64,000 bases of DNA from a virus, in IMG/VR virus record IMGVR_UViG_3300045988_139196; one strand, 5' to 3'. This document shows positions 17,822-59,697 of the stretch, piece after piece. The number at the start of each line of letters is the position of its first letter. Position 1 is the stretch's first letter. The notes below the pieces were generated by a model. The model did no database searches and was not told where the DNA came from. It saw nothing but the letters and a program-made list of their open reading frames with translations. The position numbers and the translations under genes were made by a program.

Positions 17822-20053
17822 CTACGAAAACTGTACATTATTGTATAATAAACTTAACCAAGTGTTTCTTTGCGAAGCTTGTATTTTCAAACACCTTTGA
17901 AAAGCACTAGGCTCGGCAATCAACGCACATTTGGTTTTAGCTCTGGTAATCGCAGTATAAAGCATACAGCGGTCAAGCAGTTTGTAATGGGTATTGTCGA
18001 TCAGTACAATAACATTCTTAAAACCGCTACCTTGCGTTAAATGGCAAGTCAGACAGTAAGCCAACTCAATACTACTTAAATCATTTTGCAGGAAATCAAT
18101 TTCCTTGTCGGCAAATTTAATTGTAACAATATTCTGCTTCTTGCCGTCTTTAATTGTCTGTTCAATTTTTGTAATATAACCCATTTCTCCATTGAAAACA
18201 TTTCTATCATAGTCATTCGTTCTTTGAATAACTTTCGACCCAAGACGAAATGTCTTATTACCATACCTGATCTCAAGTGCAGTATCAGGTGGAATTATCA
18301 TATCTTGCAAGATAGAGTTGATTTCAAAAGAGCTATTTATCCTGTCCTTTTTACAAGGTGTCAAAATAATCGTTTCATCATAGCCGTCTTTCTTAGCTGC
18401 CATTGTATACAATTTAATAGCCAATTCACGCATACCTTCACGGCTTTCTCTGAACATATAGGTCATGTCTTGTAGCTCGCCAGTAACAACTTTTAGTTTT
18501 GGTTCAGGCAATGGGTTTTCTCCATTTCTAATTTTAACTGAGTCCGAAATAATACCTGACTTTTGAGCCTGTCTTAAAATCTTAGTCAGTTTACAACAAG
18601 TAAACACATTGCAATTAAGCAAATCATGAAAGATATTGCCACAGCCTATTGGCGGTAACTGACCGTCATCACCTACAATAATTACTTTTGCACCCTCTTT
18701 TATAGCAGAAACCAAGCTATAAAATAATGACGAATTAACCATTGAAGCTTCATCAAGTACGATAATATCGCTAGGCAATCTGTTGTCAGAGTTATAAACA
18801 AAACCTGTCTTGTTAAAACCAAGCAACCTATGAATTGTACTTGCGAATAAACCTGTTGCCTCGGTTATTCTAATCGCAGCTTTAGCAGACAAAGCACAAG
18901 CTGATATAGAATAGCTTTTATATATCTTTGTGAGTCCTCTTAAAATCGAGCTTTTACCTGTTCCTGCTCTACCTGTTATAAGCACTACAGGGCTGTTGCA
19001 AGCCTTATATATCTCTTGTTTTTGTTCGTCTGTATAGTAAAAACCTTGTTCTCTTTCTGCTTCTGAAATACCCTTTTCAATGTTAATCTTATAGTCTGTT
19101 TCTTGTTCATTGAGATTTTTTAGAATATTCAAAATAGATATTTCAGTTTTATATTGGCGTAATAGCCCTACCTTATTTTCTTCAAAATGTAGAAATATCT
19201 CATGTTGCTTTTGTGTGGATTTAAAGTTCTCGTACATTTCATAACAATCGTTTATATTATCTCTTACCGCATTATCCAATACTGACTCTAGCACATATGA
19301 ATGACCGTCATTATTTCCAGCACACTCAAGATAATACTTGATAAATGCCACAACTCTTTTGGTTGATATTCTGATATTTGGATTTAACTTTAATGCTAAA
19401 TCGTCCACTCTTTTAAAGCCTAAGCCATGAATTTCTGTCATAATATAAGGGTTATCAAGTAACTTTTCCTTCAATAATTGAGGGTTAGGTTCATTGGAAA
19501 TTAACTTACTTATCATGGCATACGTTACACCCAACGGCTGAAGCATAATAAGAATATCTGAAATAACATAGTTATTCAATATATTATCCTTTATCCTATT
19601 CCAACTCTTTTCGCCTATACCCTTGATTTTTGCGTAATCAATTTCTCTGTTATGAATAACATCATCAATTACATTTGGGTAGACAGCTAAGATGTTTTTT
19701 GCTTGCAGTTCTGTGACCTGAGTTTTCAAATATGCTATTTGTTGTTCTTCTGTCTTAGGCACATTTGCAGTAATAGAAATTGGTGTATACTGATACGAAT
19801 TATATTTGCTATTAAAGGAGCAAGTGACTTCGGCATTGTACTCGACACCGATTGTCAAGCGTTGCATTTTACCTGCCAATGTACTACCTTTTAACAGCCT
19901 TGGCTTGTCGCCAAAGGGATCGTCATAACAATCATAAAAATATGGAATGTCATCAGAAGTTGTTATAAAAGTATATACTCCCCAATTACTATTTTCATTA
20001 TAAAATCGCTCCTGTTGAGGAACGATTTTAAATTTATAGATTTTTTCTGCCAT
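17822..20053 (-). CDS. RecD-like SF1 DNA helicase
   Basis: GRAGTGKSS (Walker A), VLDEASMV, GDDGQLPPIG and a C-terminal LYTAITRAK. Start MAEKIYKF at 20053 follows AGGAAG. Confidence 0.8.
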   Translation of the reverse strand: MAEKIYKFKIVPQQERFYNENSNWGVYTFITTSDDIPYFYDCYDDPFGDKPRLLKGSTLAGKMQRLTIGVEYNAEVTCSFNSKYNSYQYTPISITANVPKTEEQQIAYLKTQVTELQAKNILAVYPNVIDDVIHNREIDYAKIKGIGEKSWNRIKDNILNNYVISDILIMLQPLGVTYAMISKLISNEPNPQLLKEKLLDNPYIMTEIHGLGFKRVDDLALKLNPNIRISTKRVVAFIKYYLECAGNNDGHSYVLESVLDNAVRDNINDCYEMYENFKSTQKQHEIFLHFEENKVGLLRQYKTEISILNILKNLNEQETDYKINIEKGISEAEREQGFYYTDEQKQEIYKACNSPVVLITGRAGTGKSSILRGLTKIYKSYSISACALSAKAAIRITEATGLFASTIHRLLGFNKTGFVYNSDNRLPSDIIVLDEASMVNSSLFYSLVSAIKEGAKVIIVGDDGQLPPIGCGNIFHDLLNCNVFTCCKLTKILRQAQKSGIISDSVKIRNGENPLPEPKLKVVTGELQDMTYMFRESREGMRELAIKLYTMAAKKDGYDETIILTPCKKDRINSSFEINSILQDMIIPPDTALEIRYGNKTFRLGSKVIQRTNDYDRNVFNGEMGYITKIEQTIKDGKKQNIVTIKFADKEIDFLQNDLSSIELAYCLTCHLTQGSGFKNVIVLIDNTHYKLLDRCMLYTAITRAKTKCALIAEPSAFQRCLKIQASQRNTWLSLLYNNVQFS

Positions 20054-22106
20054 GTCTTTTCTTCCTTTCTGAAAGCCACTCAGTATATGGTCGCATATCC
20101 TGTATTGTAACCTTATCTTCGTCTGTTTTTCTGCACTTAATAGCAACCTGAGAGCCTTTCTTAACCAAATCTTCATACTGTACAAGTTGACTATTCCAAA
20201 GAACACCCTCTATAATACCGAAAGTAGAGTAAATGTTCACAAAAGCAAATGGTTTTTTATTTCTGTCCTTTTTCTTTTGTACTCTGGAAATAACACCTAC
20301 AATAACGCAATCATTATCATTCTCAACGGCTTCAAATGCTGTTGTTAGATAGGGGAGTGCTTCTTCAAATGGATTATTGTGTATAAATATCTGTAATGCT
20401 TCAAACTCCCAAAAATCAGCGTTTTCAAGATATTTGTTATTGGTTGAAAGAAATTGTTTCAACCTATCTTCTTGCTGTAAATCAAACTTTTCTTTCTTTT
20501 TCTGATTTGCAAGAGTGAGTAACAAATCTTTGTCATAGTCATACTTGCCGTTACCGATACGATATTTTTCAATATCAATATCATAGTCAATAATAAGCTT
20601 GTTATATGTTGGCAACTTAGACAATTCTTTATACTCTAATGGTTTATACAATGACTTCAAATATTTTAACAAACAACTCTTTTTATCTTTCGTAGGTATT
20701 GCACCTGACTTCATTAAGTTAATAATTTGAGTTTTTGCCAGTGTTGTTCTTGACAGCAAGTCTTGAAGGTTTTTATACTTGCCGTTCTTCTCACGATCAG
20801 CAACAATCTCTTGGGCTATTCGTTCACCAATGCCTGTAATCGCAGAAAAACCAAACAGCACATTGTTATCGTAAATAGAAAAATCGACTTGCGATTTATT
20901 AATATGAGGTGGTAAAACAGTTACTCCAAACTGTTTAGAGTCTACAATGTATTTATTCACCATACCTGCCTTATCTTTGTTCAAATTAAATAGTGCTTTG
21001 AAAAAATAAACAGGATAATTTATTTTTAGATAAGCAGTTTGAAAGCATAGAACAGCGTAGCTATAACTATGCGATTTGTTGAACAGATAGCCACCTTTAG
21101 TTTTCAATTCTTCACTAATCGTTTTGGCAATTTCATGAGAATATCCATTGTCAATAATTTCTTGGTACAGTTTTTCTGACTCTTGCTTAACAAGTTCAAT
21201 ATTCTTTTTGCCTATCGCCTTGCGGAATAAGTCAGCTCCACCGTAGCTTCTGCCACCAAAAGTTCTTACAATATCCAAAAGTTGTTCCTGGTAGATTATG
21301 CAGCCGTAAGTGCTTTCCAAAATAGGCTTCATGTCGGGGTGTATATAGGTGACAAGTGAGGGGTCATGTTTACATTTAATAAACTCCTCCAAAGCTCCCA
21401 TTGAATCAGGTCTATACAATGCTAAAACAGCCGACAAATCTTCCATATTAGTTGCTTGTAGTCTGAGTAGTAAGTCTTTCATACCTGCACTTTCCACCTG
21501 AAACACACCATTCGTCAATGCTTTGTTTAACAGTTCAAATGGACTTCTATCATTTTCAAATTTGGGGTTGTTGATATTTATATCATATTCAGATAAGTGC
21601 AAGTCATTTTGAATTTCCTGTACCATTTTTAAGGTCTGAACACCAAGAATATCAAACTTAATAATGCCTATTTGTTCGACAAGCCTTTTATCAACTTGAA
21701 TGACGTGTTCTCCGTCAGAGCCTAGTTTCATTGCCATATAGTCGCTAATGTCAGTATCAACAATACCGACACCGCCTGCATGACAGCTAACTGTTTTAAC
21801 CCTACCACTTAATTTGCCTGCTATATCCAACAACTCACTGTATTCAGGGTGTTCGGATAAGTAGTTTATGTTGTTGTCAATACACTCTTGAAATGTATTG
21901 TACGAAAACTTTTTGGATAGTTTATCCCTTTCACCGTATTTAAAACCTAGTATCTTGCCAACATCTTTTATGGCAACAACAGGTGTTATATACGAGAAGT
22001 TTATAATTTGACAAACACGATTTTCACCATATTTGTCAATGAGATAATTTATTACTGTAGGTCTGTCTGAAACATCAATATCCAACTTTACTACCTTACA
22101 TTTCTG
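20034..22106 (-). CDS. dnaE: DNA polymerase III alpha-like, exon 2 (palm/fingers to C-terminus)
   Basis: KLDIDV, CHAGGVGI, FDILGVQTL, YRPDSMG, IYQEQ and FNKSHSYSYA motifs. The 5' boundary is approximate. Confidence 0.8.
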   Translation of the reverse strand, partial: QKCKVVKLDIDVSDRPTVINYLIDKYGENRVCQIINFSYITPVVAIKDVGKILGFKYGERDKLSKKFSYNTFQECIDNNINYLSEHPEYSELLDIAGKLSGRVKTVSCHAGGVGIVDTDISDYMAMKLGSDGEHVIQVDKRLVEQIGIIKFDILGVQTLKMVQEIQNDLHLSEYDININNPKFENDRSPFELLNKALTNGVFQVESAGMKDLLLRLQATNMEDLSAVLALYRPDSMGALEEFIKCKHDPSLVTYIHPDMKPILESTYGCIIYQEQLLDIVRTFGGRSYGGADLFRKAIGKKNIELVKQESEKLYQEIIDNGYSHEIAKTISEELKTKGGYLFNKSHSYSYAVLCFQTAYLKINYPVYFFKALFNLNKDKAGMVNKYIVDSKQFGVTVLPPHINKSQVDFSIYDNNVLFGFSAITGIGERIAQEIVADREKNGKYKNLQDLLSRTTLAKTQIINLMKSGAIPTKDKKSCLLKYLKSLYKPLEYKELSKLPTYNKLIIDYDIDIEKYRIGNGKYDYDKDLLLTLANQKKKEKFDLQQEDRLKQFLSTNNKYLENADFWEFEALQIFIHNNPFEEALPYLTTAFEAVENDNDCVIVGVISRVQKKKDRNKKPFAFVNIYSTFGIIEGVLWNSQLVQYEDLVKKGSQVAIKCRKTDEDKVTIQDMRPYTEWLSERKKRHGRKNL

Positions 22107-22854
22107 CAAGGAATAGACTATATCTTCACCATGCGTATTATAGTTTTAACAATACGTTTAGGTGTGTGGCACTTCGAGTCAAGAATTTCACTTAACCCTA
22201 CGCTCCTTTGAGCTAGTCGTTTGACGTTTTATATTTATGATTTAATAAGTGCTATACTTTTTATTAAATCATAAAATGTAACTTCGCACAGGATTGTCAT
22301 ATCGTCAGACAGAACGACTTAGACATTCCCTGTTAGCTAATTAACACACCGCCATTTCCTGCGGTTACAATTATAATAATTGTTTAATTAACACCCTATA
22401 TTTTATAGGTTCACCACACTTAACACATATGGTTTCCCATATGCTCGACCGAAAATCAATCTGGCATTGAAACTCTCTCAGGATTGAGGAACAATTTGTT
22501 ATTAACCATAGGCTCTTTATCCTATGCTCTGGAGGTTTCCCTCATTTTCATCTGTTGGTTACTTCCAACCCAGTTTAGACTATATTTTTCAAACTTCATT
22601 CATTTATTTAAAGTTTTTATTCCGTCTTCGTGGGAAATTATTGGCTCTAAAGTCTCATTTCCTAGTCGTTACACACTTTCTTTTATCACTAAAAGATTTG
22701 GCTCGGTATTCCCTTTATCTCACCTAGTTATAGGTTTAGGGTTTCTTAGTCAGCTTATTCGTCTATGGTCTTGTCTCATTATCGGTTTGCTCTCAATGAG
22801 AAGTCTTAGTTTGCTGATACCGAATTAACGGAATTTAACGAGTGCAACCTATCT
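22107..22854 (-). mobile_element. ORF-less group I-like intron in dnaE
   Basis: About 740 nt with no minus-strand ORF split dnaE inside the FER(F)LNPER region. It shares TTCGCACAGGATT, CCCTGTTAGC, CATTTCCT and an ACCCTA-loop-TAGGTT hairpin with nrdD intron 1. Boundaries are approximate. Confidence 0.6.
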
Positions 22855-24009
22855 ACGCTCAAAAATCAATCCATATTTAATAGGGTTAAGATCAGTTATA
22901 CCTATTGTATAACACACAAGGCTTCCTGCTCCAGAGCCACGTCCTGAACCTATTTTAACCCCATGAGTTTTCGAATAATTAATAAAGTCCCATACAATAA
23001 TGAAATAACCGTCAAAATTCATTTGATGAATAATGTTCATTTCATAGTCTAGTCGGTCTTTCATTATCTTCTGATCTTCTTTAGAAAGCTTGTCAAAATT
23101 TCTAGTTTTCCACCCCTCATTAATAAGGTGTAAAAGAAATTCATTATTAGACTTATATCCACTTGGTAAGGGGTATGTCGGTAACTGTGGGTCTTGAAAA
23201 GGCATATGTACTTCTTCTATCATATCAGCTAAAGCATTAGTCTGATTTAAACCTTTTGTAACATTATTTACCCCAATTTGTTTATCCATAGTTGTATGAA
23301 TTTCTTCTTCACTTTGCAGATAACAGCCCTCATAACTTTCTGACATTGTTTCAGTGTCATGTGCTATCTGAACGTGCCTACCCTGATAATATAAATCTTC
23401 CTTTGTGGCTGCGTGGCTATCTGTAGTAATTATGTATGGAGTGTTTGTTACCTCAGATAGTTTCAAAATCTTTTTATTGTAATTAGCCTGCTCCTCTGAT
23501 TTGTGAGATTGCATTTCCAAATAGAAATTAGGAAATGCCGATTTGTATTCTTCGATATACTTAACACAAATATTAAAATCACTTTCTTTAGCTAATTTTG
23601 AAGCCAAACAAGCAGAACAAATAATTAAATCTTCTGCATATGGAGTAATATCTGAAATCTGCACTCTAGGCTTAAAATAAAAATTTTCAAGATTTGACTT
23701 AGTGATAATTTTATTTAAAGCCTTTCTACCATTCTCATTTTTTGCAAGGGCAATAAGATGAAAATACTTGTTGTTTTTATCTTTTATAGCAGTATCGAAG
23801 CACTCGTACAGCTCTACGCCATATATCAACTTAATATCAGGATATTCTTTAGATAGCTGATCGAAATATATCCATGAATATTGGTTGCCATGTTCCGTAA
23901 CTGCGTATGCTTTAATACCGACTTTTCGGCATTGTTCAAGCATTTCTTTTGGTGTGCCATAGCCGTCCAACAATGAGTACATTGTATGGTCATGCAAAGA
24001 ACTGTACAT
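22855..24009 (-). CDS. dnaE: DNA polymerase III alpha-like, exon 1 (PHP domain)
   Basis: Begins MYSSLHDHTMYSLLDG (PHP) and ends ..GSGRGSGAGSLVCYTIGITDLNPIKYGLIFER. Confidence 0.85.
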
Positions 24010-33458: not shown

Positions 33459-33487
33459 TTGACAAGTTAATTGACCCATGTTATAAT
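33459..33487 (+). promoter_or_regulatory. consensus sigma-A-type promoter with extended -10
   Basis: TTGACA (33459-33464), 17 nt, then TGtTATAAT (the -10 is 33482-33487). Confidence 0.75.
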
Positions 33488-33534
33488 AAAACAAAAAGGT
33501 AAACAACTTGAAGTAAACAAAAGGTGGTGAAAAT

Positions 33535-33696
33535 ATGTTAGAAATATTCAATAGTTTACTAAGTGTAATATTGTTTATAGGCAATATGTGTAAACAACTA
33601 ATAATCAACGTTCCATTCTTGGGATTTGTTCTTATTGCCCCGATCGTAACAGGTATCTTTAAATTTATAAACCACAAAGTCAATAAATACATCTAA
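33535..33696 (+). CDS. 53-aa hydrophobic peptide (type I toxin-like or small membrane protein)
   Basis: Unlisted ORF MLEIFNSLLSVILFIGNMCKQLIINVPFLGFVLIAPIVTGIFKFINHKVNKYI. SD AAAGGTGGTGA lies 5 nt upstream. It has its own promoter and terminator and runs opposite to all neighbours. Confidence 0.65.
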   Translation: MLEIFNSLLSVILFIGNMCKQLIINVPFLGFVLIAPIVTGIFKFINHKVNKYI

Positions 33697-33707
33697 TATT
33701 CATTCGT

Positions 33708-33738
33708 AAGCCACTCTTTTGAGTGGCTTATTTTTTTG
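33708..33738 (+). terminator. intrinsic terminator
   Basis: AAGCCACTC-TTTT-GAGTGGCTT followed by ATTTTTTTG. Confidence 0.75.
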
Positions 33739-34675: not shown

Positions 34676-35677
34676 TTAGATTTTTGATCTCTTAGAACAT
34701 TGCTCCAAATATATTTTATATTCTTGCACAATACCCTTACGAGTTAAATTATAATCAAAGAAATCTAATGCTTGACTCAAGTTCTTGCCATTCTTACCCC
34801 CAATATCTTCCGTTCTGTACACGTTTAATAAATATTTATTCGCTCTATAAAAGAAACCCGATTTACTGATAATATTTAATTTCAGGTAGATTTTTGGCAC
34901 AATAATTCTCCTAATACTATTAACAACATTAACCGAGCTAGTGCCACTGGATATAGGACGAAATAAATAATCATTTGTGTTATATGCTTTTGATATGTTA
35001 GTATTATTATATGTGGTTACATCTCTCGATTTACCACAGATATTTTGCGGTTCTTTCCCAAAATGCAATGAATAAATATTATTACATAACTCTTTATGCA
35101 GCATATTAGATACATCTGAAAAATATTCAGAGGTTAAATCTATTGTTTGCCTTTTCCCATTCTGCTGTTTTACCCATAGAACCTGCCTATCAATATCGTA
35201 GTCGCCTTTTTTTATTTTAGATAAAGCACTTTTTGGAACTCCAATCCATAATAAATGGCACATTAACTTGATGTAACAGGAATACGCACTTACCTCTACT
35301 GACCATATGTCTATATCAGGGTTATTCATCGCCTTGTCAATAGCATCATTCAGTTCTTCAATATCAGTGATAAAATTTACTTGAAATTGTATATCTTCAA
35401 TATCGCAATTTATATCTGCAAAACTGAGCCAACTCTTTAGCAGCATTTTACTGATCCTAAAACTACCAAGAGTCGAATTATCTTTTAAAAAGTTAGCAAT
35501 ATTATCATGAAGTGTCTTTTCTTCATTGTATTTTTTCAAAAAACTGTTCAAAGTTGATGCTTTTTTCTTTAACGTTGTATCGCTGGTAATATTCGCTTCC
35601 TTTTCGATATATTGATGTATCGAAAATTCCAACTCTTCTTTTGTCATAATAAAACCGTCCTTCCGAATATAATACAT
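34676..35677 (-). CDS. hypothetical 333-aa protein downstream of mazF-like gene
   Basis: ORF only. A faint integrase-like segment (LLWIGVPKSAL..IDR) has no catalytic motifs. Confidence 0.5.
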   Translation of the reverse strand: MYYIRKDGFIMTKEELEFSIHQYIEKEANITSDTTLKKKASTLNSFLKKYNEEKTLHDNIANFLKDNSTLGSFRISKMLLKSWLSFADINCDIEDIQFQVNFITDIEELNDAIDKAMNNPDIDIWSVEVSAYSCYIKLMCHLLWIGVPKSALSKIKKGDYDIDRQVLWVKQQNGKRQTIDLTSEYFSDVSNMLHKELCNNIYSLHFGKEPQNICGKSRDVTTYNNTNISKAYNTNDYLFRPISSGTSSVNVVNSIRRIIVPKIYLKLNIISKSGFFYRANKYLLNVYRTEDIGGKNGKNLSQALDFFDYNLTRKGIVQEYKIYLEQCSKRSKI

Positions 35678-37399: not shown

Positions 37400-37582
37400 T
37401 TAACAGCGACAATAGTTTCTTCGGAAGTTCCATACAATTCCGATATAAACTTCTTTTCGGGTTGATGGGAATGAAAAAGACTCTCCATTCTCATTTACCC
37501 ATATCTCATGCGACCCCTTACCTCTGCGTGAGTATGAAAACCCACGCTCGGCAAGCAGTCTTTTAAATTTGTTTATGTTCAT
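37400..37582 (-). CDS. hicA: HicA-like protein
   Basis: KRLLAERGFSYSRRGKGSHEIWVNENGESFSFP matches the HicA/YcfA pattern. Start MNINKF is at 37582. Confidence 0.65.
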   Translation of the reverse strand: MNINKFKRLLAERGFSYSRRGKGSHEIWVNENGESFSFPSTRKEVYIGIVWNFRRNYCRC

Positions 37583-37649
37583 TTTGTTGTTGTTCCTTTC
37601 TTTTCTAATTTTTGCAAGATTTGAAAACAAAACTTGCATTTTATTTACT

Positions 37650-38426
37650 TTAGTTTGTTGTATTACACTTTCTCAACATTCTAATAATTCCACTCTGACC
37701 CTTTGGCGTTACCATAGGAGTGAGTCCTATTCTGACTGCGCCATTCTGTATGTATGAGCTTTCTTTAAGCTGAAACCATGGCTGAGTGTCTATGTACCTT
37801 TGATAAGGCATATTCTTATGACCGTCCTTACAGCCTAACACTTTCTTTTCTCTCAAAAAATTAAATAGCCTTGTTCTGCCTATCTTTATTCCGTTCTTAG
37901 TTGCCAACTTTGCCATGTCGTTCATTGATATACAATCTTCAGAAGTTTGTATATGACTTGCAAAGTCCACAAGAGGTTTATCCTGCTCTATCTTATTATT
38001 AAGCTGTCTGATCGTTGATAGATTGAGCCTGAACAATTCTCTCGTCTGAGCATCGGCATTTGGCAGATAGGTGTTAATGAACATCTCGTCATTGGCTACA
38101 TAACCGCCTGTCTTGCGTATAGTCGGGAGAACTTCTGAAGTGACCCAACGTTTAAATGTTTTAGCCTTTGGTAGCTTACTTCCGAGAATAAGAGAATACA
38201 AGCCAGACTCATTAATGATAGTCATTGTTTGCTTTCCACCAAGGACGCCCTGAAATGGGGCGTCATTTTTATCATCATCATCAACGTGCCTTGCAATGGC
38301 ATTTCTTGCCTTTGTATACCCCAAAATCTCAGCCACATCTTTTCCGACAAACCAAGGCTCTCCGTCCTTAACTATTGTCCTCACTGTTCCAAATTCCTTG
38401 TTTGTGAATGTTTTAATTCCGTCCAT
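37650..38426 (-). CDS. BRO-N / KilAC-type phage antirepressor
   Basis: FTNKEFGTVRTIVKDGEPWFVGKDVAEILGY (Bro-N) and a C-terminal ..MNDMAKL..GRTRLFNFLREKKVL (KilAC-like). The ATG at 38426 follows AAAGGA. Confidence 0.8.
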   Translation of the reverse strand: MDGIKTFTNKEFGTVRTIVKDGEPWFVGKDVAEILGYTKARNAIARHVDDDDKNDAPFQGVLGGKQTMTIINESGLYSLILGSKLPKAKTFKRWVTSEVLPTIRKTGGYVANDEMFINTYLPNADAQTRELFRLNLSTIRQLNNKIEQDKPLVDFASHIQTSEDCISMNDMAKLATKNGIKIGRTRLFNFLREKKVLGCKDGHKNMPYQRYIDTQPWFQLKESSYIQNGAVRIGLTPMVTPKGQSGIIRMLRKCNTTN

Positions 38427-38517
38427 TTTCTTTGTCCTTTCTGTTCTTAATTTACATTGTTGTTTGAAATTTCCTGCTTGCAAGCATAAAAATACACTAT
38501 TGTCAAAGAAATAGTTC

Positions 38518-38546
38518 TTGACAGCAGTGTTTACTCATGATATAAT
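38518..38546 (+). promoter_or_regulatory. perfect consensus promoter for the antisense sRNA
   Basis: TTGACA (38518-38523), 17 nt, TATAAT (38541-38546). Confidence 0.75.
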
Positions 38547-38552
38547 ATATTT

Positions 38553-38661
38553 ACCAGAAGTAACACTTGTCAAAACACCATTACTATAAGTAATGTGCTT
38601 GTGTACTTTTGTTCACCTGACAACTCTGCTTGACTTTCCACGGACAGCAGAGTTGTTTTTT
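38553..38661 (+). ncRNA. candidate sRNA of about 110 nt, antisense to the RHH-antirepressor intercistronic region
   Basis: Runs from the consensus promoter to the terminator ACAACTCTGCT-loop-AGCAGAGTTGT plus T6 (38620-38661). Internal hairpin CATTACT-ATA-AGTAATG. No SD-preceded ORF. Confidence 0.6.
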
Positions 38662-38842
38662 ATTTGCCAACAATAGTTTTAGTTTCGTTTAGCCTTAGTA
38701 CCAATTCAAACTTGTCATCTACATACATTTTCATGAATGTTTCCAACAAATCGTTCATTTTAATGCCGTTAATAGCACATTTTGACTTGAACTGATTTTG
38801 AATTTCGCTGTCTATTGTTGTTGTGAACGGTTTTCTATCCAT
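38660..38842 (-). CDS. Arc/CopG-like ribbon-helix-helix protein
   Basis: 60 aa with a beta-alpha-alpha pattern: KPFTTTIDSEIQNQFKSKCAINGIKMNDLLETFMKMY. Confidence 0.6.
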   Translation of the reverse strand: MDRKPFTTTIDSEIQNQFKSKCAINGIKMNDLLETFMKMYVDDKFELVLRLNETKTIVGK

Positions 38843-38870
38843 TATTATTTTCTCACCTGCCTTTTATTAT

Positions 38871-38899
38871 AGTATAATTTATTTTTATATGTTTGTCAA
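38871..38899 (-). promoter_or_regulatory. promoter of the RHH-antirepressor operon
   Basis: On the minus strand: TTGACA (38899-38894), 17 nt, TATACT (38876-38871). Confidence 0.65.
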
Positions 38900-39076
38900 C
38901 CATATAAAAATAAAAATCTTTCACAAAATTCTAGCGTATTTTTTGTTGAAATACACAATTTTAGTTTCTGAGATATTACACTTAAACCCTAAATCTTGAT
39001 TTTCAGCCTAAAATATGCTAAAATTTTCTTATAAAAAGTAATTCTAATTAATCTTAGAAATTGGAGGAAATAAAAA

Positions 39077-39736
39077 ATGAGCAAAATAAAATTAATTCTT
39101 ATCGCACTCATGACAATATTAGCATTGTCCTCATGTAATAGTAAAACAACAAGTTCCATATCTGACAGTAATTTCACTACCACTACAACAATTACAACAA
39201 CCACCACTCCCACAACAACTTCTCATACTTTGACAACAACCAAACCATCAACTACCACAACCACTTCCAAATCATCAACTACTACCACAACGACTACAAC
39301 CACAACGACAACTACAACTACCACGCATGATTATAGTTCTGAAATAAGTGCTTTAGAGCAAGAAAATAATCGCCTACAGGGTGAAATCTCCACCTATCAG
39401 AACGAAATAAACAATGAGCAATCTGATATTTCCATCTATGAAATCTATAAATCGGATGCCGAAGATGATGTTGAGGAGGCTAAAATACAGCTTGAAAACG
39501 CCAATAAGAAAATGGTTAAAGTTTATGGTGATGGCGGTTGGACTACAGAAGTTGACTCAGAAGCAGTTTCAAAGGCTCAATCTCACTTAGACGATTGCCA
39601 AAGAGTTGTTGACGTGTACAATGAACTTATATCAGAAAGTCAAAGTAATATTGATTATTATAACACTTGTATATCCAATAATCAAAGTTCCATTGAAAGC
39701 AATAATAGTCTTATAAACGATTATCGTAGCAGATAA
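39077..39736 (+). CDS. lipoprotein with Thr-rich linker and coiled-coil domain
   Basis: Signal peptide with lipobox LALSSC, a poly-T/S linker, and heptad-like QNEINNEQ repeats. SD GGAGGA upstream. Confidence 0.75.
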   Translation: MSKIKLILIALMTILALSSCNSKTTSSISDSNFTTTTTITTTTTPTTTSHTLTTTKPSTTTTTSKSSTTTTTTTTTTTTTTTTHDYSSEISALEQENNRLQGEISTYQNEINNEQSDISIYEIYKSDAEDDVEEAKIQLENANKKMVKVYGDGGWTTEVDSEAVSKAQSHLDDCQRVVDVYNELISESQSNIDYYNTCISNNQSSIESNNSLINDYRSR

Positions 39737-40144: not shown

Positions 40145-40173
40145 TTGACAAAATGAGTATAGTATGCTATACT
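40145..40173 (+). promoter_or_regulatory. promoter of type III TA locus 1
   Basis: TTGACA, 17 nt, TATACT. Confidence 0.75.
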
Positions 40174-40202
40174 ATAAATGATGAAAGGTAGTTATTTACC
40201 AT

Positions 40203-40292
40203 TTCCGCTTACCAATATGCGGGATATAAATGGTTGGGTTGAAAGTTTTCCGCTTACCAATATGCGGGATATAAATGGTTGGGTTGAAAGTT
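40203..40292 (+). ncRNA. type III antitoxin-like RNA: two perfect 45-nt direct repeats
   Basis: TTCCGCTTACCAATATGCGGGATATAAATGGTTGGGTTGAAAGTT occurs at 40203-40247 and 40248-40292, plus a 2-nt partial third copy. Confidence 0.8.
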
Positions 40293-40294
40293 TT

Positions 40295-40327
40295 AAGCCT
40301 TGCCGTTGTGGCAGGGCTTTTAATTTT
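40295..40327 (+). terminator. intrinsic terminator between RNA repeats and toxin gene
   Basis: AAGCCTTGCC-GTTGT-GGCAGGGCTT followed by TTAATTTT. Confidence 0.75.
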
Positions 40328-40342
40328 GGAAGGTGAAAAATA

Positions 40343-40849
40343 ATGGTTGAACATGGCTTTTATATAATTGATGATTTATTCTTCAAGAAATTTAACGACC
40401 CTTTTCTAAAAGGAAATAAATCCGAAAATCGTCCTCATTACTATTGTTTTAAAGATACTAATGAAGGACTATATTGGATAATTCCTTTAAGCTCACGCAT
40501 TAACAAGTATCAAAAGATAATCAACCAACGCTTAAAAAATCATAAGCCATGTGATATATTACATATTTGTACTCTGAGCAATGGAAAACAAAGTGTATTT
40601 TTAATACAAGATATGTTTCCCATTACTCAAAAATATATCAAGCGTAAATATACCATTAATTCCAATCACCTCATTCTTAAAAATCAAAATGAAATACGAA
40701 TTATTAAACAAAAAGCTGAACGTATTCTTAATCAGATCAATCGAGGTCAACATTGTATTACAACTTGTGCCGATGTATTATCTATCAAAAAAGAACTGCT
40801 GTTAGAACTACAGATAGAAACTCAAACAGCGGACACTCTGACTTGTTGA
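40343..40849 (+). CDS. ToxN/AbiQ-family type III toxin (endoribonuclease-like), copy 1
   Basis: GFYIIDD..F, ENRPHYYCF, GLYWIIPLSSR and FLIQDMFPIT match the ToxN/AbiQ pattern. SD GGAAGGTGA upstream. Confidence 0.8.
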   Translation: MVEHGFYIIDDLFFKKFNDPFLKGNKSENRPHYYCFKDTNEGLYWIIPLSSRINKYQKIINQRLKNHKPCDILHICTLSNGKQSVFLIQDMFPITQKYIKRKYTINSNHLILKNQNEIRIIKQKAERILNQINRGQHCITTCADVLSIKKELLLELQIETQTADTLTC

Positions 40850-40901: not shown

Positions 40902-40930
40902 TTGACAAATTGACAATAGTATGCTATACT
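40902..40930 (+). promoter_or_regulatory. promoter of type III TA locus 2
   Basis: TTGACA, 17 nt, TATACT. The 27 nt at 40918-40944 are identical to 40161-40187. Confidence 0.75.
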
Positions 40931-40962: not shown

Positions 40963-41087
40963 AATTTACGCTTCGCAATGTGCGACACAGAAACATTGTA
41001 GATACAATTACGTTTCACAATGTACGGCAAAGTAACATTGTAGTATTCAATTTACGCTTCGCAATGTGCGACACAGAAACATTGTAG
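40963..41087 (+). ncRNA. type III antitoxin-like RNA: about 2.9 copies of a 43-nt repeat
   Basis: Units start at 40963, 41006 and 41049. Units 1 and 3 are identical over 39 nt (AATTTACGCTTCGCAATGTGCGACACAGAAACATTGTAG). Unit 2 is diverged. Confidence 0.8.
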
Positions 41088-41151: not shown

Positions 41152-41640
41152 ATGACGGAACATGGTATGTACTTTATTACACCCGACTATTATCAACTTA
41201 TTCGAGATGTAGGAGGAACTTGGAATGATTGCAAGGAAAGACCCATTGTTTGTTTGATTAAGTCCACCGAAAATTCCAAATTGTATTGGGCAATACCTGT
41301 AGGCAAAGTAAATCATCGTGACACTAAAGCTATTAATCGTATTTATTCCTATATAAACAAAGATCCAAGAAATATTGCTTCTTGCTTTTATCACATTGGC
41401 AAGACAACCACCAAATCTATTTTCTTTATTAGTGATGCTTTTCCTGTAACAGATGTCTACATAGACAGAATTTATGAGGGCTATGATAAACAACAATATG
41501 TCATTGAAAACAATAATCTTCTGTCTGCTCTGAAATATAAGCTCCAAAGAATTTTAAGTTATGAAAATGCTAATCCAAATTTCTTCCGTCAGCATATTAC
41601 CGATGTTAAAAGAAAACTATTAGACGAAATTAACAATTAA
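41152..41640 (+). CDS. ToxN/AbiQ-family type III toxin, copy 2 (diverged paralogue)
   Basis: GMYFITPDYY, KERPIVCLI, KLYWAIPVGK and FFISDAFPVT. SD AGGAG upstream. Confidence 0.75.
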   Translation: MTEHGMYFITPDYYQLIRDVGGTWNDCKERPIVCLIKSTENSKLYWAIPVGKVNHRDTKAINRIYSYINKDPRNIASCFYHIGKTTTKSIFFISDAFPVTDVYIDRIYEGYDKQQYVIENNNLLSALKYKLQRILSYENANPNFFRQHITDVKRKLLDEINN

Positions 41641-42012: not shown

Positions 42013-42873
42013 TTATTTTACATACTTATCCACAACTTCCTTGCCCACTTCCATTTTTAACATTTGCTCTTTTACGAGTCTGCTATCGCAGCCACTATAA
42101 TGTTGCTCAGTTATCCTCAAATCAGAATGTCCTAAGCTCTGACAGGCAATACGCAAATCTCTAATAACATCTTCACTGCCTTTTTGAATACAACTAATAT
42201 AAACGGAATGTGTCTGCCTAAAGCTGTGAGTGCTATATTTACCTTCTATGCCATGTTTGGCGGTTATATTCTTTAGAAATGTTGTAACGGAATTAAGTTC
42301 CATAGGAGCTATTCTGAGTAGTCTGCCGTTCCAATCATACTTCTCATTAGTATATATAATTTCTTCTTCTCCGTCCTCATTCAAGAAAATGTCCTCAATA
42401 TACTTCCTCTTACGTTCTCCACTCTGAAAAATATAATCTTCTGGGTCAAGTCCATAATACTTGATTATAAAACTCAGCATTTTCTTCACAGTATCACAAA
42501 GCCATGCCGTTCTCCATTTGTCCGTCTTGTCCTCTTGTAATGTCAAGTAATCTACAATTTTGCCGTTGTTATCGGTTAAATCCTTGACCCTCAAGGTCAT
42601 TATATCTCCGTAACGATAGCCTAAGTTACAAGCAAAAATTATAATATTTGCCTTGAAATATTTTTTGTTCTGAAACAAATCTTCCAAGAGAACATTCAGA
42701 TCATCGGGTCTGAACCAACTCGCAGACTTCTGCTTGCTTTCTTTATGCTTCGTAATAGCATTTCTGTGACCTTTTTTTCGTTTTGGCTGTTTTGTTATCT
42801 GTATTCCTGTCAGAAGTCTATCCGATAAATCGAAAATTTTGCAAGTTTGAGCTGTACTAATATTCATTTTCAT
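42013..42873 (-). CDS. tyrosine recombinase / phage integrase family
   Basis: GYRYGDI (Arg), HSFRQTH (HxxR) and LGHSDLRITEQHY (His..Tyr). Confidence 0.8.
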   Translation of the reverse strand: MKMNISTAQTCKIFDLSDRLLTGIQITKQPKRKKGHRNAITKHKESKQKSASWFRPDDLNVLLEDLFQNKKYFKANIIIFACNLGYRYGDIMTLRVKDLTDNNGKIVDYLTLQEDKTDKWRTAWLCDTVKKMLSFIIKYYGLDPEDYIFQSGERKRKYIEDIFLNEDGEEEIIYTNEKYDWNGRLLRIAPMELNSVTTFLKNITAKHGIEGKYSTHSFRQTHSVYISCIQKGSEDVIRDLRIACQSLGHSDLRITEQHYSGCDSRLVKEQMLKMEVGKEVVDKYVK

Positions 42874-53230: not shown

Positions 53231-53737
53231 CACAATATATAGTGCATATTATTGTATTTTTGAATGATAACCGCTATATATAGTGATACTATGATTTATA
53301 AACGAAACTAAAATATTTGTAAGAAGTTACAAATATATAATTGAAATGAGGTTTAAAATTGGACAATATAAACAAAAAGAAGATAGAGTATAATGCTGCA
53401 TACACTGCCAAAAATTACAAAAAATTATCGGTTAATGTGAAGCCCACAGATTATGCGGCTATTGACAATTATTGTAAAAAATCAAATATTAGCAAAGCTA
53501 AATTTATTGTAAAATGTTGTAAACACTGTATAGATCATGATATTAGTTTTGATGATTAACTAGACCACAATATATAGTTGTTAATACAGTATTTATTACT
53601 TGTAATACACAATATACAGTATGCTTATATCTTGAGTTATAAGGCTACTAGCAAGCGTTATATACTGTTGTATATATGGGTGGTATGTTATACTTGATAG
53701 CCGTTAAAATGAATTTTAGAGCATACAATATATAGTG
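53231..53737. repeat. five dispersed copies of a 14-nt motif (consensus CACAATATATAGTG) flanking the RHH gene
   Basis: Copies at 53231-53244, 53272-53285 (CGCTATATATAGTG), 53566-53579, 53608-53621 and 53724-53737. Confidence 0.65.
53359..53559 (+). CDS. ribbon-helix-helix (CopG/Arc-like) protein
   Basis: 66 aa with a TTG start 7 nt after GAGG. YNAAYTAKNYKKLSVNVKPTDYAAIDNYCKKSNISKAKFIVKC fits the RHH pattern common in Firmicute plasmids and phages. Confidence 0.55.
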   Translation: MDNINKKKIEYNAAYTAKNYKKLSVNVKPTDYAAIDNYCKKSNISKAKFIVKCCKHCIDHDISFDD

Positions 53738-58659: not shown

Positions 58660-59697
58660 ATGACAGAAAACAACAAAACTATGGTAACAGTATTTGAGAG
58701 CAAAGATTTTGGCAAGGTAAGAACGGTAGATATTGATAACAAGATTTACTTTTGCGGTTCTGATGTGGCAAAGGCGTTGGGGTATTCAAGACCAGCGGAC
58801 GCAATAACATCTCATTGTAAAGGGGTCTGCGTTTTACCGACCCCTTCGGCTGGAGGTGTACAGAAAACAAAATTCATTTCAGAGGGTGACGTTTATCGTC
58901 TTATAGCACATAGTAAACTCCCTTCCGCAGAACGCTTTGAGAGTTGGATATTTGACGAGGTACTTCCAACTATACATAAAACAGGCAGTTATATTGCGGC
59001 AGGCTCGGAAAAAGACAATGAACTAAAACTATTGCAAGCTACGGTTACTCAGCTTCAGAATATGTTACTTGCATTATCGGCTAAGAAAATACCAAATGAA
59101 AAAGCTTTGAACATATGGAAGAAACAAATTAGCACTCCGCTTATAGTGAAGTTACAGGATAATGCTTTACGAACTACAGGTGAGGTTGTTGAGTTTGCAG
59201 ATATGCTACATAGAGTTTATACTCAAATGACTTCAATGTTTGGCTTTTGTACTGTTACGGCTCTTAGTGAGTTTACAGATAAGTACAATTGTGATTGTAC
59301 TACAATACAGCCAAGTATTATAAATGCTATTGCGGATAATCATGTATATCAGGCTTGGTTTACTCAGGCTTGTAATCAGCTTATGATTTGTGTAGGTAAT
59401 GGGGATAGGTTTACATCTGACGATGGTTGTACTTATAATGCTACACAGTTTACTTTAGAGGACAGCTTTGATTTTATTGCTTACACACTGGCAGAGGTTA
59501 TGAATGATAGATCGGCTCATCATGCACACACGCTGTCTATGGTTTATAAGAAGATAAACTCCACGAGAGGTTGGCATAATCAAATGACTAGGAAGAAGGC
59601 AAAGACTAAGAAAGATGTAATATTGTCTGATAGAAAACAGTTTACTAAATTTGTGTTAGCTAGCAATGAAATTATAAAGGAATTGAGAAGGAGTTAA
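58660..59697 (+). CDS. BRO-N domain protein
   Basis: FESKDFGKVRTVDIDNKIYFCGSDVAKALGYSRPADAI. Confidence 0.75.
   Translation: MTENNKTMVTVFESKDFGKVRTVDIDNKIYFCGSDVAKALGYSRPADAITSHCKGVCVLPTPSAGGVQKTKFISEGDVYRLIAHSKLPSAERFESWIFDEVLPTIHKTGSYIAAGSEKDNELKLLQATVTQLQNMLLALSAKKIPNEKALNIWKKQISTPLIVKLQDNALRTTGEVVEFADMLHRVYTQMTSMFGFCTVTALSEFTDKYNCDCTTIQPSIINAIADNHVYQAWFTQACNQLMICVGNGDRFTSDDGCTYNATQFTLEDSFDFIAYTLAEVMNDRSAHHAHTLSMVYKKINSTRGWHNQMTRKKAKTKKDVILSDRKQFTKFVLASNEIIKELRRS

Follow-up and report, generated by a model that had tools for sequence, protein, structure and literature searches.

The 64,000-nucleotide stretch of viral DNA analysed here (IMG/VR record IMGVR_UViG_3300045988_139196, hereafter called the window) carries, upstream of a phage antirepressor-type gene, what is most likely a real but undescribed RNA-based control module. 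On balance we favour reading it as a three-part cassette: an autoregulated operon of a small ribbon-helix-helix (RHH) protein; an antisense small RNA (sRNA); and an attenuator switch set over the downstream cargo, in this case the antirepressor-type gene. Whether a temperate phage remains silent or kills its host depends on how its antirepressor is controlled. RNA-based control of an antirepressor is well studied in the enterobacterial phage P1 (c4), and to our knowledge the well-studied examples, P22 sar and P1 c4, come from enterobacterial phages only. The present analysis indicates that gut Firmicutes phages possess a conserved, unannotated sRNA gene that does a similar job with non-homologous parts and a plasmid-style attenuation logic; within an incomplete coverage of the literature, we found no report of an antisense-RNA-controlled antirepressor in Gram-positive phages. 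The elements of the cassette were identified in silico, as were their conservation, the strand of the hairpin and the alternative RNA structures. From upstream to downstream of the operon they are:

38878-38914, no strand assigned: candidate RHH operator, a palindrome of 18+18 bp, 94% complementary and centred on the -35 hexamer, from inverted-repeat finding.
38871-38899, minus strand: RHH-operon promoter, TTGACA-17-TATACT, with homologous promoters upstream of nearly all RHH homologues.
38660-38842, minus strand: gene for a 60-aa, Arc-like RHH protein and presumed autorepressor (PHROG 3180).
38553-38664, plus strand: predicted antisense sRNA of about 110 nt, its fold and architecture shared by about 20 homologous loci.
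38544-38573, minus strand: promoter-like site, TTGACA-18-TATATT, overlapping the sRNA promoter (11 of 12 matches, p = 0.003).
38526-38567, minus strand: antiterminator helix of the sense leader, arms 38567-38552 and 38542-38526, from the minimum-free-energy fold.
38518-38546, plus strand: sRNA promoter, TTGACA-17-TGaTATAAT, 12 of 12 matches with a TGn extended -10.
38485-38530, minus strand: sense-strand intrinsic terminator (attenuator), a 15-bp stem 38530-38515 / 38510-38494, then AUUUUUAUG.
37650-38426, minus strand: Bro-N + ANT/KilAC antirepressor-type gene, 258 aa (Pfam, PHROG 130).

It is very probable that a convergent small-RNA gene exists in the 233-nt spacer between the RHH gene and the cargo. 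The original prediction, made from the letters of the DNA, had placed there a perfect plus-strand TTGACA-17-TATAAT promoter at 38518-38546, and the site is indeed flawless, with the TGn element in addition; none of 300 shuffles of the region equalled its score. Perfect TTGACA-17-TATAAT sites number three in the window against 0.07 expected, and only two combine TGn with no mismatch. The other of these two lies in the region 33459-33735, where it precedes a small hydrophobic open reading frame (ORF) of about 50 aa followed by a clean terminator, and points against a minus-strand gene block. As the strong sites at 33459, 40145 and 40902 all precede obvious transcription units, this type of promoter evidently is one that the phage uses. 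The strong terminator said to follow the sRNA promoter is also present: an 11-bp perfect stem (38620-38630 / 38646-38656) followed by TTTTTTATTT, which runs into the RHH stop codon. A simple terminator scanner missed this hairpin because its loop measures 15 nt. The predicted RNA is thus composed of a short 5' tail, stem-loop 1 (38555-38611), terminator stem-loop 2 (38619-38657) and a U-run (38657-38664) that overlaps the RHH stop codon, and it matches the opposite strand without a break over the first ~110 nt of the spacer mRNA, with perfect complementarity. As a 116-nt plus-strand RNA the region folds at -32.4 kcal/mol (z = -4.0). Its promoter and that of the RHH operon converge from about 350 bp apart. 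A permissive Rfam scan of 38300-39100 gave no gathering-level match, the best sub-threshold hits being eukaryotic snoRNA and miRNA models (E = 0.6-8), and an Rfam scan of the whole window returned nothing relevant to the sRNA region.

The evidence that carries this gene is comparative. The region recurs at 95-100% identity in 18 IMG/VR contigs and in several human-gut metagenome contigs; because the 18 viral contigs are 98-100% identical across the region, they are uninformative for covariation, and divergent RHH homologues with their loci were gathered instead. BLAST against 50,697 phage records matched only within the Bro-N coding part (66-77% identity) and found the intergenic region in no known phage; a genome scan with the single sequence gave no matches, and alignment-based scans supplied the loci. 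The set comprises 21 RHH homologues (identity 44-85%) and about 25 distinct RHH-homologue loci from metagenome-assembled Lachnospiraceae and Acetatifactor, Bacillus, Anaerosolibacter, Ureibacillus, Sarcina, and viral and metagenome contigs. Recurrence in so many distinct loci marks the module as conserved rather than a product of chance. Of 25 loci, 18 have a hairpin that starts no more than 8 nt from the RHH stop codon; its U-run lies on the antisense strand, where it is encoded by the lysine-rich last codons of the RHH gene. Stem sequences vary from locus to locus yet stay paired, with compensatory changes at 10 of 11 aligned pairs; covariation scores 0.651 in the native alignment and 0.329 in shuffles (none of 500 reached the native value), with at most 0.358 in registers slid out of place. 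The predicted RNAs of the loci are built alike, from a short 5' tail through a small stem-loop to a terminator hairpin whose loop is unusually large. Through promoter, covariation and strand bias, therefore, the ~110-nt antisense gene of the original prediction is conserved in divergent loci, still as a predicted gene.

The strand of the hairpin speaks against a competing account, namely that there is no functional sRNA: the hairpin would be the end of the RHH transcript, the plus-strand promoter fortuitous, and the cargo expressed from the minus-strand site at 38573-38544. That site matches at 11 of 12 positions, above chance for the window (p = 0.003), and AT-rich DNA such as this does yield low-grade promoter matches, 24 being found versus 17 expected. 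The U-run, however, belongs to the antisense side; on the sense side the RHH gene is followed by none. Pairs of the G·U kind, which form only in the antisense RNA, outnumber A·C pairs by 37 to 5 in the hairpin stems, and in 20 of 21 loci the hairpin is stabler on the antisense strand (mean -19.5 vs -13.6 kcal/mol; Wilcoxon p = 9e-5). Antisense promoters, often with TGn and ending 57-113 nt from the RHH stop codon, are conserved in position and beat shuffles (p <= 0.05) in 15 of 25 loci, versus 1 of 25 for the sense strand. Moreover, with a start at about 38537 the antiterminator arm would be missing from the transcript, which should then end at 38485-38493. Taken together, strand bias, covariation and promoter conservation argue strongly that the hairpin is not merely the end of the RHH transcript; we rejected its reading as the RHH-gene terminator on the strand evidence (G·U bias and antisense stability), and we hold an account with no functional sRNA to be very unlikely.

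Still more improbable is a type I toxin-antitoxin system, in which the sRNA would be the antitoxin to a small toxic peptide encoded in the spacer. A convergent sRNA in an accessory region rich in toxin-antitoxin genes would suit such a system; the sense ORFs of the spacer, however, have merely 3 and 11 codons with no Shine-Dalgarno (SD) sequence, a 27-codon plus-strand ORF likewise has no SD and runs through the terminator, and no spacer ORF is conserved in the relatives. We rejected this candidate, as the spacer holds no translatable small ORF.

The first part of the cassette, the RHH operon, agrees well with what had been proposed. The promoter that the original prediction placed at 38899-38871 is there, and the 60-aa RHH protein corresponds to ORF 38660-38842, which matches PHROG 3180 ('Arc-like repressor') with E = 1.4e-10 and has no Pfam match at E <= 0.01. 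An AlphaFold2 monomer model of moderate confidence (predicted local distance difference test score, pLDDT, 67) has helices at 12-24 and 29-41, and the N-terminal segment before them would form the strand of an RHH dimer. PDB sequence searches and Foldseek on the model gave weak matches, at E values from 0.1 to 9. RHH proteins rank first by sequence and take the first two places by fold, and several of the other matches are RHH proteins as well; the RHH-type structures are SvtR, ParG, RelB, DinJ, AmrZ and CopG. The N-terminal FTTTI strand, which reads DNA, is invariant in the protein family. Embedded in the candidate operator, a palindrome spanning 37 bp, is the RHH promoter itself, and in nearly all homologues the promoter of the RHH gene bears AAACATAT/ATATGTTT repeats, placed over its -35 hexamer, its spacer or its -10 hexamer. 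Given the palindrome with its conserved repeats and the invariant strand, the presumed autoregulation is a well-founded reading, and from sequence alone the RHH protein would be expected to repress its own promoter through the predicted operator. The exact operator half-site CATATAAAAAT occurs at a single place in the window, and further half-sites, as a wider RHH regulon would have, are not above chance there. A second small RHH-looking ORF of 66 aa, judged by eye, lies at 53359-53559.

It is likely that the sRNA represses the cargo, and since its target region disrupts a terminator in the leader, the best model for this is antisense-induced transcription attenuation. The original prediction had held that the RNA does not cover the antirepressor SD, and this is so: the RNA extends from 38553 to about 38664, the SD lies at about 38435-38439, and the cargo ATG is at 38426-38424. 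Its further claim that control does not work by occlusion of the ribosome-binding site stands as far as the uncovered SD goes, and is refined here to attenuation at a sense terminator (38494-38530) that it had missed, together with the promoter-like site at 38573-38544. The attenuator hairpin has an energy of -13.1 kcal/mol and its U-run occupies 38485-38493; the -35 hexamer of the sRNA promoter is contained in its 5' arm. Folding the free leader, or transcripts still being made, yields the antiterminator helix, whose 5' arm falls within the sRNA target. In the free leader the lower stem of the attenuator is displaced by the antiterminator helix while the U-run pairs with 38610-38601, so that both displacing partners are inside the target. 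The probability of the lower stem is accordingly 0.04 in the free leader versus 0.98 with the target blocked, and only 1% of 300 dinucleotide-shuffled targets suppress the attenuator as well as the native one. Folding of nascent transcripts forms the antiterminator before the 3' arm of the terminator exists. The site at 38573-38544 is the sole significant sense-strand site among 25 loci, and its likeness to a promoter follows from the need of the antiterminator arm to mimic the 3' arm of the terminator (both are UUGACA); its function is uncertain, and it probably arose as a side effect of the RNA switch. Between the attenuator and the cargo ATG there is no minus-strand promoter-like site. We put the chance that attenuation is the main route in this phage at about even.

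Related loci (L numbers below) provide variations on the same theme. From the end of the sRNA target to the SD there are about 115 nt in the window and 35-50 nt in most relatives, many of which appear to sequester the ribosome-binding site instead of attenuating. Of 18 other loci, 10 have a native target that leaves the cargo SD more open than 96% or more of the shuffles leave it (the SD and start of the window, L019, L022 and L074 were read by eye or left out of this SD analysis). Blocking the target closes the SD, the unpaired probability falling from 0.82 to 0.11 (L059), 0.94 to 0.33 (L080), 0.81 to 0.17 (L082), 0.73 to 0.07 (L077) and 0.44 to 0.07 (L057), and in L026 the predicted RNA directly overlaps the cargo SD. 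With an SD switch in 10 of 18 loci and none in some, repression by RNA refolding seems common in the family and not universal.

The same relatives bear on a rival that accepts the sRNA and its repression of the cargo and does without attenuation, acting by RNase III cleavage of the ~110-bp duplex, which would part a stable RHH message from an unstable cargo message, or by convergent transcription from the very strong antisense promoter, which would block or dislodge polymerases arriving from the RHH promoter. The facing promoters, about 350 bp apart with a perfect consensus on the antisense side, would suit it; convergent transcription affects the antisense promoter of pIP501 (PMC4981023); and with several relatives having no predicted terminator or SD switch, a mechanism independent of structure would fit the whole family. 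On the other hand, the target is tuned to disrupt the terminator or open the SD far beyond shuffles, a tuning that cleavage and interference do not need. Both processes are compatible with attenuation, and we think it unlikely that they act in its stead.

Several points weigh against the three-part reading as a whole. The ends of the sRNA, its abundance and even its existence are predictions. In the free leader the best terminator-containing fold lies 0.4 kcal/mol above the minimum, so that the case for attenuation is a kinetic and probabilistic one, built on folding order and ensemble probabilities and not on a wide gap in energy. The minus-strand site at 38573-38544 could be the cargo's own promoter. 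Nearly identical as they are, the 18 contigs lend no independent support to an attenuator specific to the window, and since some comparison loci are mutually related, the locus counts overstate their independence. Four loci (L019, L049, L051 and L053) have no predicted switch effect, and in L022 a hairpin containing the SD, with a U-run, forms whether or not the target is blocked. Finally, 'antirepressor' is the family name of the cargo, from which its activity is deduced, and no target repressor for it was identified in the window.

Two further observations concern L022. The string CTTGACTTTCCAC, which is the terminator loop of the window sRNA (38631-38645), is found again in the -35 region of the L022 sRNA promoter (L022 3260-3316), and the loop GGAAAGU of the L022 SD hairpin is complementary to the loop of the L022 sRNA. 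The shared string and the loop complementarity hint at a second kissing site or at a recombination scar.

From these elements we infer a circuit involving sRNA transcription, RHH binding, attenuation and an antirepressor activity of the cargo, which would work as follows. The promoter at 38899-38871 would transcribe the RHH gene and then, by read-through, the cargo, until the RHH protein closes it via the palindrome over the -35 hexamer. The extended -10 promoter in the 233-nt spacer would meanwhile make the opposing ~110-nt RNA that ends beside the RHH stop codon. On a free mRNA the target stretch would pair with the 5' arm and the U-run of the attenuator, and polymerase would read into the cargo; with sRNA on the target the full terminator would form and transcription would stop about 60 nt before the cargo start codon, the RHH protein still being made. 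Repression would probably be strengthened by RNase III, which would cut the duplex, and by collisions between convergent polymerases; the outcome would be a short, self-limiting pulse of cargo expression.

The cargo of the window bears out the earlier assignment of a BRO-N/KilAC gene after a 233-nt gap: the gap is confirmed, and the protein matches Bro-N (E = 1.8e-30) and ANT/KilAC (E = 5e-21) in Pfam, and PHROG 130 'anti-repressor Ant' with E = 1.9e-82. Among close homologues of the RHH gene the cargo always is of the antirepressor type with a varied domain make-up: Bro-N + ANT (window, L022); Bro-N alone (L019); ORF6N + ORF6C (L026); AntA + ORF6C (L057); and ORF6N alone (L074). Distant RHH homologues have unrelated small genes downstream, and in several loci the cassette sits as an insert among unrelated phage genes. 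From the shuffled domains and varied downstream genes it appears that the regulatory part behaves as a travelling unit with exchangeable cargo. A second Bro-N gene in the window (58660-59697, 345 aa) has no RHH or antisense module upstream. Directly downstream of the cargo, and possibly in its transcript, lies one further gene:

37400-37639, minus strand: HicA-like toxin gene (PF07927, E = 2.4e-6).

No HicB is recognisable near it. An inverted repeat TGCAAG-N14-CTTGCA lies at the start of the HicA-like gene (about 37612-37637), and the related palindrome GCTTGCAAGC at 38476-38485, after the attenuator U-run; both could be sites for some regulator.

A wider proposal, which we advance only tentatively, is that Firmicutes phages and prophages share the RHH-plus-countertranscript cassette as a portable unit, able to impose 'pulse then silence' on almost any downstream gene through refolding. 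The form of this would vary with the lineage (a terminator in the present phage, SD sequestration in others, SD overlap in a few), the sRNA at the same time providing sequence-specific trans immunity between related phages. If true, it would be an independent invention, or a very ancient relative, of P22 immI and of the plasmid CopG/RNAII circuits. That the sRNA works mainly in trans, the RNA made constitutively by a resident prophage silencing the cassette of an incoming related phage with the loops setting specificity, we consider quite improbable. It would account for terminator loops that are large (13-20 nt) and of differing sequence classes in loci whose RHH DNA-reading residues are nearly invariant, and it would suit a cassette whose neighbours are accessory and defence genes (MazF, HicA and two type III toxin-antitoxin-like pairs); P22 immI, too, is an immunity region (PMC2629481). 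A lysogenic life style is only putative for this phage, however, with one recognisable tyrosine recombinase and no CI-type repressor found in the window. Such a role is compatible with the attenuation cassette, from which it differs in emphasis.

For annotation, the analysis offers an RNA family made up of a promoter, two stem-loops and a terminator in a fixed position beside a recognisable 60-aa protein. Its predictions are concrete and suited to simple reporters, and the cassette would be a compact natural pulse generator with potential for reuse in Gram-positive synthetic biology.

The source is probably a gut phage with a Firmicutes host; its genome is roughly 85-108 kb with a G+C content of about 33%. 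Long minus-strand gene blocks in the window encode, among others, a DnaB-like helicase, RecJ, an exonuclease V/Dda-like helicase and a sliding clamp, and there are three tRNA genes. The surroundings of the cassette are an accessory stretch with MazF/PemK, HicA, a tyrosine recombinase and two type III toxin-antitoxin-like pairs. In the first of these a perfect tandem repeat of 45 nt x 2.1 (40202-40294) comes after a TTGACA-17-TATACT promoter with TGn (40145-40173), and after the repeat an ORF with a weak match to ToxN (PF13958, E = 1e-3), so that 40145-40849 looks like a type III toxin-antitoxin pair. In the second a promoter at 40902-40930 precedes a 44-nt x 2.9 repeat matching the Rfam Fusobacteriales-1 motif (RF02920, 88.7 bits, 40964-41085) and then ORF 41152-41640 (PHROG 33519); this layout of repeat plus ORF suggests a ToxIN-like system whose RNA antitoxin is the Fusobacteriales-1 motif. 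The phage integrase family (PF00589) is matched by 42013-42873 only (E = 1.3e-10), and a 333-aa ORF adjoining the tRNA cluster (34676-35677) is without a family match. A group I intron (RF00028, 53.8 bits) on the minus strand at 22094-22388, between ORFs 20034-22109 and 22849-24009, probably splits a single replication gene.

Among known systems, the original prediction had likened this layout to P22 immI. The likeness holds for gene order and hairpin placement: in X01916, arc (370-531) is followed by a 68-nt spacer that opens with a large-loop hairpin, and then by ant (600-1502). In both, an RHH repressor is co-transcribed (in the window presumably so) with a downstream antirepressor and a convergent small-RNA gene (predicted in the window) lies between; the large-loop hairpin comes immediately after the RHH stop codon; the RHH operator, a candidate one in the window, overlaps the operon promoter; and in several loci the cassette is inserted among unrelated genes, like the 'ant moron' of P22 (PMC2629481). 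At the protein level there is no homology, and the comparison is one of analogy only. Arc belongs to PF03869, which the window RHH protein does not match (hhalign probability 0.2%), so that its Arc likeness, drawn from the PHROG name and the weak PDB RHH matches, is one of fold class; Ant is P22_AR_N/P22_AR_C, whereas the window cargo is Bro-N + ANT/KilAC (BLASTP E = 0.33). The spacers measure 68 nt in P22 versus 233 nt in the window. Sar acts by blocking the ribosome-binding site of ant (PMC7968456), whereas some 115 nt separate the predicted window RNA from the SD and a terminator is its predicted point of action, overlap with the SD being found only in the related L026. Inspection, with no dedicated search, revealed no Mnt-like second repressor or divergent promoter beside the module; the neighbouring plus-strand gene (39077-39736) has, by eye, a lipoprotein-like N-terminus and no RHH or Mnt match in Pfam.

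The closest mechanistic relatives most likely are the copy-control circuits of Gram-positive plasmids, pMV158 CopG-RNAII and pIP501 CopR-RNAIII, precedents established by experiment, with which the comparison again is by analogy. Control of repB in pMV158 is shared by the RHH protein CopG and RNAII, an RNA of 48 nt whose target lies just upstream of the repB translation signals (PMC4485353). The window would share with it a small RHH autorepressor co-transcribed with the regulated gene, and shares an intergenic countertranscript that ends at an intrinsic terminator, a target upstream of the translation signals and not over them, and a single-stranded 5' tail before the hairpin (PMC4485353). 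The differences are that its cargo is a phage antirepressor-type protein and not a replication initiator, in the context of a phage genome; that its RNA has about 110 nt and two stem-loops versus 48 nt and one; that RNAII inhibits translation whereas attenuation is predicted here; and that CopG is a weak structural match only (Foldseek E = 8.5). In pIP501 the leader has 329 bp, attenuation within it is brought about by RNAIII, an RNA of 136 nt, and the antisense promoter responds measurably to convergent transcription (PMC4981023). Likenesses to pIP501 and pT181 are a long leader before the regulated gene; an antisense RNA of about 100-140 nt complementary to the leader and not to the ribosome-binding site; a flip between antiterminator and terminator, which is proposed for the window, with a target that includes the antiterminator arm, in the window a thermodynamic prediction; and a protein repressor on the sense promoter with convergent promoters (PMC4981023, PMC5415839). 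Unlike these plasmid replicons, the window is phage DNA, and its repressor is an RHH protein encoded upstream on the same transcript. With proteins that are not homologous to P22 Arc and Ant, the cassette is an analogue of both immI and pMV158 CopG-RNAII and a member of neither. In its working it is probably closest to the plasmid circuits, whereas its layout, and probably its use, resemble those of immI; as such it would represent a convergence of regulatory design between plasmid copy control and phage developmental control.

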